Below, one piece after another: positions 4,041-5,640 of a stretch of DNA of 64,000 bases (positions within the stretch are counted from its first letter, which is position 1; every line of letters begins with the position of its first letter). This DNA is from Shigella phage KPS64, in the sequence record MK562502. The stretch is one strand, 5' to 3'. The notes beneath the pieces were generated by a model. It did no database searches and was not told the origin of the DNA. It saw only the letters and a list, made by a program, of their open reading frames with translations. The translations under genes were made by a program, and so were the position numbers.

Positions 4041-4079
4041 CATCACTTAAGAGTCTTTTAAGAGGGTTTTTAAGTGATG
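4041..4079. repeat. 39-bp palindromic element CATCACTTAAGAGTCTTTTAAGAGGGTTTTTAAGTGATG (copy 1)
   Basis: 10-bp perfect inverted repeat arms; second copy at 5600-5640. Confidence 0.6.
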
Positions 4080-4082
4080 CTC

Positions 4083-4154
4083 GGTAAGGTTCGGTTGGGT
4101 GTGGTATGGTCTGGTATGGCTGGGTTGGGTCTGGTCCGGTTTGGTGAGGGTAGT
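4083..4154 (+). repeat. pentameric (GGTNN)n tract 1, about 14 units
   Basis: Splitting into 5-mers gives ggtaa ggttc ggttg ggtgt ggtat ggtct ggtat ggctg ggttg ggtct ggtcc ggttt ggtga gggta. Confidence 0.7.
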
Positions 4155-4156
4155 TA

Positions 4157-4182
4157 GTCTCAGCTACATTAAAATGAGACTC
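4157..4182 (+). other. hairpin with conserved loop GCTACATTAAAA (family member 1)
   Basis: Stem agtctca/tgagact; loop shared with hairpins at 4292, 5572, 5705. Confidence 0.5.
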
Positions 4183-4229
4183 ACCTTTTTAAAAGGTCTT
4201 TAAAAGGGTCTTTTAATGAGGTTTCGCTA

Positions 4230-4299
4230 GGTAGGGTAGTGTCCGGTTGGGTCTGGTAAGGTCAGGTTAGGTAAAGTGAGGTAAGGGTGGATGGTAGTA
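4230..4299 (+). repeat. pentameric (GGTNN)n tract 2
   Basis: ggtag ggtag tgtcc ggttg ggtct ggtaa ggtca ggtta ggtaa agtga ggtaa gggtg. Confidence 0.65.
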
Positions 4300-4319
4300 G
4301 CCACGTTAAAAATCTACCA
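4292..4319 (+). other. hairpin with conserved loop TAGCCACGTTAAAAAT (family member 2)
   Basis: Stem tggtag/ctacca; covaries with tggcag/ctgcca in copy at 5705. Confidence 0.5.
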
Positions 4320-4394
4320 AGTTTCTAAAGAGTCTTCTGTTGAGGGTTCTTTATAAACAACTTAACAATAAACTAAAGTGTGGAGCTAAATGCT

Positions 4395-4982
4395 ATGAAA
4401 CTGTTAAATATCAAAATCACTGGCACTCGTCCTTTCCTGAGCCATGCTGATACTCTGTCAGACCCATTAAATCCTCTGACAAAGTATCACAAGTCTCTGT
4501 CTAGTAAACGTAAAAAGACTGACGAAGACTACGCTCTCTTAGCAGAGAGTCAACTGGTAACCTCTTGTTACTACGACGAGCAACTAGGTTTTGTTATGAA
4601 CGGTGAGATGATTGAGGCTTGTATCAAGTCTGGTGCAAAACTCAACAAACTTGGTAAGGTAATTGACCGAGCCATTATGCTGACAGATGTAGTCTTCCCA
4701 ATGACTATTAAGAACTGTCCAGCAAACCCACAAGAACTAGCTAAGAACCAAGACTTTATCTATGCGAAGTCTGTTAAGATTGGCACAGCACGAGTTATGA
4801 GCTACCGTCCAATCTTCCGTGACTGGTCTGTAGAGTTTGGTTTGATGTTTGATGAAGAACAAATTACCAAAGAAGAACTCTTGATGGTTCTGGAAAATGC
4901 TGGTAACCTTTGTGGTGTAGGTGATTGGCGTCCACGCTTTGGTCGTTTTTCTGTAGAAGTTATTTCAGAAGGTAATGTTTAA
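4395..4982 (+). CDS. hypothetical protein (about 195 aa)
   Basis: ATG at 4395 nine nt after GGAG; no recognisable motif. Confidence 0.45.
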
Positions 4983-4984
4983 TT

Positions 4985-5425
4985 ATGAATACAAAAGCAT
5001 TAGCAGCAAAGTTTAGTTACGGTGATACTGTATCACACTCTGAGATGGACACCTTCTTAGGTATTGTGAAGCCGACTTATCAAGGTGACATTGTTAAGTA
5101 CGAAGATGAAATGAAGGCTTACGCACTTACACGCCTAAATCGACTTGAGAAGTTTATTGAGAAGCTTCTTAAAGAAGAGAAGATTTATCTGGTTACTTCA
5201 ATGGGTGTTGGTTATCGTGTGGTGGAACCTAAACATCAAGCAACTATTGCAAAACGTAAAATGTCTAGTAAGATTGGTCGTGCTTTAAAACAAGCCACTC
5301 AAGCGATTGAGAATGTGAACACTATGGCACTTAGTCATCAAGAACGTTCACGACTGATTGAACAGCAAAACCATTTAGCTGCTATGAAAGCTAACATTAA
5401 CAAGCAACGTAGAAAACCTTTCTAA
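4985..5425 (+). CDS. hypothetical protein (146 aa)
   Basis: ORF followed by an intrinsic terminator. Confidence 0.45.
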   Translation: MNTKALAAKFSYGDTVSHSEMDTFLGIVKPTYQGDIVKYEDEMKAYALTRLNRLEKFIEKLLKEEKIYLVTSMGVGYRVVEPKHQATIAKRKMSSKIGRALKQATQAIENVNTMALSHQERSRLIEQQNHLAAMKANINKQRRKPF

Positions 5426-5434
5426 GTTGACTAG

Positions 5435-5460
5435 GCAGCCTCTTCGGAGGCTCCTTTTTA
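5435..5460 (+). terminator. rho-independent terminator
   Basis: agcctc-ttcg-gaggct hairpin followed by a T-run. Confidence 0.6.
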
Positions 5461-5499
5461 AAAGGTCTTCAAAGAGGGTCTTTTAATGAGGTCTGTCAT

Positions 5500-5570
5500 G
5501 GTGATGTTTGGTAGGGTTTGGCAAGGTTCAGTCAGGTAAAGTGTGGTCTAGTAAGGTAGGGTGTGGGTAG
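5500..5570 (+). repeat. pentameric (GGTNN)n tract 3
   Basis: ggtga tgttt ggtag ggttt ggcaa ggttc agtca ggtaa agtgt ggtct agtaa ggtag ggtgt gggta. Confidence 0.65.
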
Positions 5571-5571
5571 T

Positions 5572-5599
5572 TAATCGGAGCTACATAAAAATTCGATTA
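5572..5599 (+). other. hairpin with conserved loop GAGCTACATAAAAAT (family member 3)
   Basis: Stem taatcg/cgatta. Confidence 0.5.
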
Positions 5600-5640
5600 C
5601 ATCACTTAAGAGTCTTCTAAGAGGGTTTTTAAGTGATGTT
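5600..5640. repeat. 39-bp palindromic element (copy 2)
   Basis: ACATCACTTAAGAGTCTTCTAAGAGGGTTTTTAAGTGATGT, near-identical to 4041-4079. Confidence 0.6.

Follow-up and report, generated by a model that had tools for sequence, protein, structure and literature searches.

Why should a phage keep two copies of one perfect palindrome beside tracts of short, G-rich repeats, and at what level does such an element act? We took up this question in Shigella phage KPS64 (sequence record MK562502), in a stretch of 64,000 nucleotides that we call the window. A first-pass annotation had taken the two palindromes for either an operator of a dimeric DNA-binding protein or a cruciform or RNA hairpin. Our analysis places them in a type II locus of VIPR (Viral Interference Programmable Repeat), and we consider it about 60% probable that they serve as templates for RNA stem-loops that belong to its non-guide parts. 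Of the possibilities raised earlier, the RNA hairpin is favored and the dimer operator is the weaker.

Two perfect palindromes and their imperfect paralogues

The pattern CATCACTTAA-N19-TTAAGTGATG has exactly two matches in the window, at 4041-4079 and 5600-5638, both on the + strand and without mismatches, and its expected count over 100 shuffles of the window is 0.00. Their 19-nt loops differ by a single base (T or C at loop position 18). The two palindromes are therefore a real, non-random feature, as the first-pass annotation had claimed together with the near-identical loops; its coordinates for the first copy hold, and the second copy ends at 5638, 2 nt short of the 5640 that it gave. 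Its sigma70-like promoter some 30 nt upstream of the first copy is also present: TTGACA at 3983-3988 and TATACT at 4005-4010 are separated by a 16-nt spacer and match in 11 of 12 positions, and the gap from the promoter end (4010) to the start of copy 1 is 30 nt.

A search for further copies, which had been suggested as a check, returned no perfect match beyond these two in the window, and three imperfect ones: 4184-4221, 5453-5491, and the more degenerate 4321-4358. Taken literally, the lack of extra perfect copies counts against the earlier proposal, yet it has no bearing on the true function of the element. The transcribed strand carries all five copies: four stand directly against a guide tract, and the fifth (4321-4358) comes after the last upstream tail. 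Among 121 fetched loci, the perfect palindrome is present in 26, every one of them Felix O1-like.

The palindromes lie in a VIPR type II locus

VIPR, a CRISPR-like, RNA-guided means of attack on rival mobile elements, was first described in two 2026 preprints (bioRxiv 10.64898/2026.04.26.720920, 10.64898/2026.04.26.720927; hereafter the VIPR preprints). The system consists of vipr, which encodes a minimal RAMP protein, an accessory gene vap, and vrRNAs of ~100 nt (or <100 nt), each composed of 9-16 YNNGG repeats and an invariable ~40-nt tail, which in the SUSP1 clade forms a pseudoknot. Each repeat is bound by one Vipr protomer, which sequesters GGY and presents NN, and the Vipr filament reads double-stranded DNA with every third base skipped (a one-nucleotide skip). 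Its natural targets, which are silenced, are satellites and competing prophages. The vrRNAs of SUSP1 were detected by small-RNA sequencing and co-purified with Vipr in pull-downs, and vap1, predicted to bind DNA, enhances defence (VIPR preprints).

The window derives from a Felix O1-like myovirus of the genus Mooglevirus, of which Shigella phage Sf17 is a close relative. Its 195-aa Vipr is ~99% identical in amino acid sequence to that of phiSUSP1 and has the GGY-contact residues H17, R138, D177, W178, R179, E71, M72, and C173 all at the published positions, the sole changed published residue being T175, here V. The locus thus has a minimal, single-RRM RAMP vipr with the GGY residues and an adjacent vap1, flanked by GGY/NN vrRNA genes (four tracts of ~11-15 units) with a pseudoknotted tail and a code in which one nucleotide is skipped. 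We conclude that it is almost certainly VIPR type II. It is not a CRISPR-Cas locus, as it has two genes only, its "spacers" are GGY-NN repeats, and its solitary RAMP protein is Vipr. Because the VIPR preprints describe exactly this system, the locus is already known; it belongs to a sister phage of the model phage SUSP1.

The resemblance to SUSP1 extends beyond Vipr. The vap1 gene is ~94% identical in nucleotide sequence, the guides are GGY/NN tracts of 8-16 units with a pseudoknotted tail on both sides of the genes, and an E. coli satellite is targeted with a skip of one. The two phages differ in guide sequence and in arrangement, with two guides on either side of the genes in the window and one upstream plus three downstream in SUSP1 (L020), the latter in agreement with the published layout. 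SUSP1 also has the 39-nt leader or inter-guide hairpin, which is undescribed in both preprints; for type II, neither VIPR preprint mentions the palindrome, a leader, a hairpin 5' of the repeats, an RNase, or processing.

The palindrome is probably a conserved RNA hairpin

The locus contains four modules of ~150 nt on the + strand. Each starts with a hairpin-forming core, continues as a GGT-NN tract that repeats strictly every 5 nt, and closes with a second hairpin, whose loop is conserved. The palindrome is always immediately 5' of the first pentamer, outside the tract and tail, and because tract and tail account for the reported ~100 nt it would lie just outside the mature RNA. Its predicted RNA fold is an 18-bp stem closed by a 3-nt loop, with folding free energies (dG) of -15.9 and -17.5 kcal/mol for copies 1 and 2 and z scores of about -6.4 (-6.4 and -6.3, respectively), and this fold is retained within that of a 319-nt precursor. 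The stem grows from 10 to 16-18 pairs solely through G·U pairs; because such stem-extending pairs are not symmetric in duplex DNA, the RNA hairpin is favored.

Comparison among relatives points the same way. Across 28 distinct sequences of the hairpin, 94.4% of cells are paired, versus 41-68% when the pairing is slid. Five pairs change on both sides, pair 4-36 alternates between U-A and U·G, and the stem-extending G·U pairs are invariant. Both arms are intact in a natural variant whose loop is enlarged by a 22-nt insertion (CATCACTTAAGAGTCTTTAAATTATATTCGATAGAGTATCTCATAGGGTTTTTAAGTGAGG; L016 4259-4436, L029 12221-12398). That the palindrome acts at the RNA level as a hairpin is, in our judgment, probable, and slightly more secure than the full reading given at the outset.

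These same data bear on the possibility that the element is instead a duplex DNA operator through which a dimeric Vap1 (predicted to be winged-helix or helix-turn-helix (HTH)-like), or the Cro/cI-type HTH protein encoded at 6399-6698, regulates the guide arrays and vipr. The perfect 10-bp arms would suit such a site, as would the position of copy 1 at about +24 to +62 of a strong promoter, where a bound protein could plausibly act as a roadblock. An HTH_3 protein is encoded 0.8 kb downstream, Vap1 is itself predicted to bind DNA and enhances defence (VIPR preprints), and symmetric co-variation of the arms suits a symmetric site as well as a hairpin. The likeness to Cro/cI-type or winged-helix operators, namely a perfect inverted repeat near a promoter with DNA-binding proteins encoded nearby, is however confined to these features. 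The half-sites are centred 29 bp apart (~2.8 helical turns); by our reasoning this puts them almost on opposite sides of the helix, which would suit a simple dimer poorly, and the tolerated 22-nt loop insertion would shift them two turns apart. Three of the five copies are poor DNA palindromes that pair well only with G·U pairs or mismatches; neither dyad symmetry in all copies nor one-dimer spacing is found. Copy 2 lies inside the array, far from any promoter, and an operator would leave unexplained the strict strand polarity and the fixed, direct abutment to the guide tracts. The first-pass annotation had named the 6399-6698 protein as an example of a nearby HTH protein to assay for binding; we found no specific link, and Felix O1 keeps the downstream gene block without vipr and vap1. 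An operator is therefore unlikely.

A different role at the RNA level would be that of a stability or termination element. It would shield from host RNases either the vrRNA before it, at the 3' end, or the vrRNA after it, at the 5' end, or else attenuate transcription, without being a cleavage signal. The hairpins are stable, each tail is followed by a hairpin, whether a core copy or the 5732-5778 inverted repeat, and the imperfect forms start within the U5 run that follows a tail. Termination is hard to reconcile with the sequence, since no U-run follows the hairpin and AU-rich palindromes followed by a G-rich tract are unlike an intrinsic terminator; the GC-rich stem and U-run of a Rho-independent terminator are both lacking in the palindromes. 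As for stability, a retained hairpin would give a mature vrRNA of ~140 nt, whereas ~100 or <100 nt is reported (VIPR preprints), and copy 1 has no upstream guide to protect. We regard this explanation as about as improbable as the operator, if anything marginally more so.

Several observations weigh against an RNA stem-loop that serves the guides from outside them. The hairpin is shorter than the approximately two helical turns typical of E. coli RNase III substrates, and it contains G·U pairs. The compensatory changes fall mostly between two paralogous forms and so represent few independent events, and symmetric changes are equally expected of a palindromic protein-binding site. In several variants of the perfect form (GTGAGG, CACCAC), outer pairs are lost with no compensating change. 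Copy 1 has a promoter of its own ~23 nt upstream and is therefore not needed for separation from a preceding guide. The notion of a hairpin-free mature RNA rests on the ~100-nt size and two-part description in the VIPR work, and not on read coordinates. Plasmid constructs gave functional vrRNA, their exact 5' boundaries being unstated (bioRxiv 10.64898/2026.04.26.720920, 10.64898/2026.04.26.720927).

A vrRNA gene in the satellite, with a promoter and a terminator of its own and the identical tail, is without the palindrome. This absence is what would be expected if the element serves release or insulation of guides within phage arrays. The satellite tail is identical to the b-type tail of the phage, and no vipr is annotated in the satellite loci that were fetched.

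Hairpins also tend to precede the tracts of distant type II loci. We collected 75 such loci (37-48% amino acid identity, GC content 41-67%), 66 of which have periodic GG tracts; 154 of these tracts are on the gene strand and one on the opposite strand, and they always lie just upstream of the vipr-like gene or just downstream of the second gene. In this set (L043-L117), as many as six guides are arrayed upstream of vipr. Immediately 5' of the tract there tends to be a stem-loop of different sequence, with a mean z of -1.16 versus -0.06, and with 31% versus 6% at z < -2. Many of the tracts have, within a few nucleotides of their 5' side, a short hairpin with a GNRA-like loop, as in GGTGC-GAAA-GCACC and GGTGGC-GATA-GCTACC. 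In a metagenomic phage with only 49% identity, this two-gene cassette again stands between G-rich tracts of 5-nt period, and small hairpins close at least two of these tracts.

Guide tracts diverge rapidly around conserved structures

We scanned viral contigs for the pattern and then searched with a profile, which yielded 100 instances of the module, 86 of them unique; pentamer statistics were computed from the 915 pentamers of 81 unique modules. Position 1 is G at a frequency of.80 and never C, position 2 is G at.96, position 3 is T at.88 or C at.10, and positions 4-5 are essentially free of constraint. Tract lengths step by 5 nt, with 76 of 81 congruent to 3 mod 5 and a range of 8-16 units. 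The core and the 3' hairpin are conserved; the tract, hypervariable in both its sequence and its length, retains the period. In the tail, 93.5% of cells in the hairpin and pseudoknot are paired versus 28-38% when slid, the pseudoknot helix is 100% paired, and 9 of 11 pairs covary.

The pace of change in the tracts is evident from pairs of genomes with 93% identity at the four-fold degenerate sites of the flanked genes: in these, 84% of orthologous tracts differ in length. In tracts of equal length, NN identity is.57 versus.93 at the four-fold degenerate sites of the flanked genes, and at a neutral identity of.87 it is.27, which is random; NN positions thus change much faster than these degenerate sites. 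Genomes hold one to five modules, and orthologous tracts have been swapped between close relatives.

Such swapping raises the possibility that the element is mainly a recombination scaffold, in which the homology of tail and hairpin between hypervariable tracts would allow guide modules, and the whole vipr-vap1 cassette, to be gained, lost, and shuffled, the palindromic shape being incidental. The variable module number and the swapped tracts would follow, as would the retention of a single chimeric module by vipr-less phages such as Felix O1. Homology-driven shuffling, however, neither needs nor maintains compensatory pairing or a fold with a z of -6, and recombination is better taken as something that the repeats bring about than as what they were selected for. 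We consider this the least likely of the alternatives.

Some relatives are without the genes themselves. The vipr gene is held by 129 phage records, and the intergenic region is matched by ~230. Felix O1 and many relatives that are without vipr and vap1 keep one orphan unit comprising promoter, slightly degraded palindrome, tract, and tail (L121, Felix O1, 1505-1735; L005 2729-2879; L007 4176-4321). The orphan unit looks as if the flanking modules had recombined with each other to produce it. In the three satellites described below, the orphan guides of these vipr-less phages have no target at ≥80%.

Predicted targets of the guides

We scored 81 unique guides against three E. coli satellites with a cut-off of at least 80% NN match. 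With a skip of one nucleotide 35 guides reached this level, compared with one, zero, and one for skips of 0, 2, and 3 and one when the order of units was shuffled. Guides with targets stand behind both the perfect and the imperfect form of the hairpin (14 of 38 and 21 of 43). In the window, guide B1 (5490-5564) matches codons 10-24 of a tape-measure gene (L120 8063-8106) at 27 of 30 NN positions, where the null maximum is 21; the match is in frame, and all skipped bases fall on the wobble position of a codon. The satellite tape-measure gene is thus the predicted target of B1.

Guides A1, A2, and B2 have no target above the null in the three satellites sampled. Window guide A1 (4078-4147) differs from its counterpart in Sf17 (L004 2464-2639) by the loss of one GGTTC unit; Sf17 A1 matches satellite L118 at 25 of 30 positions, and window A1 at just 19 of 28. 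A single-unit deletion or slippage may have inactivated the guide in the window. There is no self-targeting of the window, the best self-matches being ≤70%. Exact targets with a 1-nt skip, no mismatches allowed, gave no match in viral contigs (guides A1, A2, and B1), genome contigs (A1 and B1), or metagenome contigs (A1 and A2), collections that hold few E. coli satellites.

The satellites came to light in a BLAST search of the module against 5,426 complete E. coli genomes, with chromosomal matches in 149. The matches lie in an integrated, satellite-like element of ~12 kb with serine recombinase, tape-measure, baseplate, and HNH genes and its own vrRNA gene (L118 4873-16943; L119; L120), which fits the satellite described in the VIPR work. 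Its insertion site is either the DUF72 (yecE) gene or the vicinity of wrbA.

Organization of the locus

In order, the locus comprises a promoter, two hairpin-guide-tail modules, vipr and vap1, two further hairpin-guide-tail modules, and a terminator, all on the + strand. We found no periodic GGT tracts outside this locus on either strand of the window or in the complete 90-kb genome of Sf17. The deposited annotation marks this stretch only as "DR_4," "repeat_region," or "terminator," and the genome papers of Felix O1 and UAB_Phi87 contain no description of the locus.

The sigma70-type promoter TTGACA-16-TATACT (3983-4010), conserved in Felix O1, drives the upstream guide array and probably vipr-vap1. 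An inverted repeat, GGTGAGTA...TACTCACC, spans its -10 box (3998-4039; dG -15.0, z -3.4), and its 3' arm alone would be transcribed. Palindrome copy 1 (4041-4079) follows as a leader hairpin directly 5' of guide A1, and its last two bases (TG) fill the GG position of the first pentamer. The A1 tract (4078-4147) has 14 GGY-NN units, and its 3' tail (4148-4185) has the hairpin AGTCTCA/TGAGACT and the pseudoknot GTAG/CTAC. The imperfect paralogue CCTTTTTAAAAGG...CTTTTAATGAGG (4184-4221) forms the inter-guide hairpin before the A2 tract (4220-4284; 13 units), whose tail (4285-4318) has the hairpin GGTAG/CTACC and the pseudoknot GTGG/CCAC. The degenerate core copy at 4321-4358 (dG -13.6, z -3.6) stands between this last upstream guide and the ribosome-binding site of vipr.

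The two genes lie at 4395-4982 (vipr, encoding the Cas7/Csm3-like RAMP protein) and 4985-5425 (vap1, encoding a 146-aa accessory protein and 93.9% identical in nucleotide sequence to the SUSP1 gene that follows vipr). The Vipr product belongs to a large family without a Pfam domain, the vap1 product likewise has no Pfam domain, and Pfam and PHROGs were uninformative for both. A terminator-like GC hairpin followed by T5 (5437-5459) is the sole report of the terminator scan (5437-5452), and it must be read through if the downstream guides are to be made. An imperfect paralogue (5453-5491) precedes the 15-unit tract of B1, whose tail (5565-5599) has the hairpin AATCGG/TCGATT and the pseudoknot GTAG/CTAC. 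Palindrome copy 2 (5600-5638) is the inter-guide hairpin before the B2 tract (5637-5697), which has ~11-12 units with one irregularity of register near its 5' end and a tail (5698-5731) with the hairpin GGCAG/CTGCC and the pseudoknot AAGG/CCTT. The array ends in an 18-bp inverted repeat followed by a U-run, a likely terminator (5732-5784; dG -17.8, z -4.4). This repeat also encloses the -35 box of the next promoter (5751-5779) and could be a combined terminator and promoter-occlusion element.

Other identities for the locus were considered and set aside. A terminal or packaging signal was rejected because the physical ends of relatives, such as the 608-bp direct terminal repeat of UAB_Phi87, lie elsewhere, and a dispersed genomic repeat because complete Sf17 has tracts at this locus only. 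A small open reading frame across the tract was also rejected, the 27-codon frame at 4077 not being conserved and having 8 codons in copy 2. An R-loop or primase-site replication origin, a TRAP-like RNA sponge, a two-tier G-quadruplex, and a Chi-like tract were dropped once the flanked gene proved to encode a RAMP protein and the VIPR papers were found. Rfam 15, hammerhead ribozymes included, had no match at E ≤ 1 in 3950-5850, and the tRNAs alone passed the Rfam gathering threshold in the window.

Elsewhere in the window, 26 tRNA genes cluster on the - strand at 33810-38801; in Sf17 a gene annotated "RNA-binding protein, DUF2828" adjoins the tRNA cluster. A dense cluster of 10-12-bp tandem repeats occupies 49200-50600, with units such as TCTTAACAATC and CTCTTAAAAGCC. 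The motif CTCTTAAC occurs 10 times in the window, 5 of them at 49.8-50.3 kb, and all 3 of its occurrences in L118 are inside the 2.6-kb non-coding region of the satellite (13.4-16.0 kb); it may be a regulatory or origin motif common to helper and satellite. A 127-bp unit present twice at 99% identity and a 45-bp unit present three times complete the repeats (51959-52216, 57926-58051).

Discussion

If the palindromes are templates of RNA stem-loops, the hairpin would form co-transcriptionally in the leader or inter-guide spacer and would mark the boundaries of guides or a processing site. It may insulate the tract, which is single-stranded and rich in G, and may define where the Vipr filament begins on the 5' side. 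The 18-bp double-stranded RNA may also be a substrate for cleavage, for which host RNase III is the obvious candidate; because the hairpin has no ribozyme core, any cleavage there would be by a protein. Such cleavage would release guides that have no promoter or terminator of their own from a polycistronic precursor. For a specific function in processing or boundary definition, we place the odds slightly below even.

The element invites comparison with class 1 CRISPR, in which Cas6 processes the repeat hairpin. Both have a co-transcribed array in which a conserved palindromic element alternates with variable guides, a RAMP protein that polymerises along the guide at a fixed nucleotide period, and a structured element at the border of the guide. 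The locus in the window differs in being without Cas6, Cas1/2, or a CRISPR array, and in its guides, which are low-complexity GGY-NN tracts and not captured DNA. The period also differs, 5 nt with 3 sequestered in VIPR versus 6 nt with 1 flipped in class 1 CRISPR, and the mature VIPR guide seems to keep the tail and not the palindrome. Within VIPR itself, hammerhead ribozymes lie between the guides of other types (VIPR preprints). The arrays of types I and V, in which hammerheads are interspersed among vrRNAs, share with the window a structured RNA between guides, a presumed separator, whereas the element described here is a simple 18-bp hairpin. If it releases guides, the hairpin would correspond in function to the CRISPR repeat hairpin or to the inter-guide hammerheads.

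A more tentative extension, which we think more doubtful than a general role in processing, is that the stem-loop is a dedicated biogenesis signal of Felix/SUSP1-clade arrays, cut by RNase III or by Vipr/Vap1, and that the GNRA hairpins of distant type II loci and the hammerheads of other types serve the same step. Since the last two bases of the stem-loop fill the first GG position, it would on this proposal also determine the register in which the Vipr filament is built and the point at which the filament starts on the 5' side.

As the system was already described, the novelty that remains is modest. Our analysis, independent and purely computational, confirms the architecture, the tail pseudoknot, and the one-nucleotide-skip code, and it adds a concrete predicted target for the phage in the window, the satellite tape-measure gene. 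It also illustrates that an unexplained repeat spotted by eye can belong to a VIPR system, a context that is itself invisible by eye. VIPR has potential as a tool, given a protein of ~20 kDa, a guide of <100 nt, and no PAM (protospacer adjacent motif), and the hairpin is relevant to the engineering of multiplexed vrRNA arrays.

For the biology of these phages, the conserved hairpin, undiscussed in the VIPR papers, may explain how type II arrays resolve into single guides. The cutting of type II arrays is unaddressed in either preprint, and the hairpin makes the question directly testable. VIPR has been proposed as a form of RNA-guided DNA recognition older than CRISPR; if the proposed role in biogenesis is true, the stem-loop would be the missing "repeat" of a proto-CRISPR.

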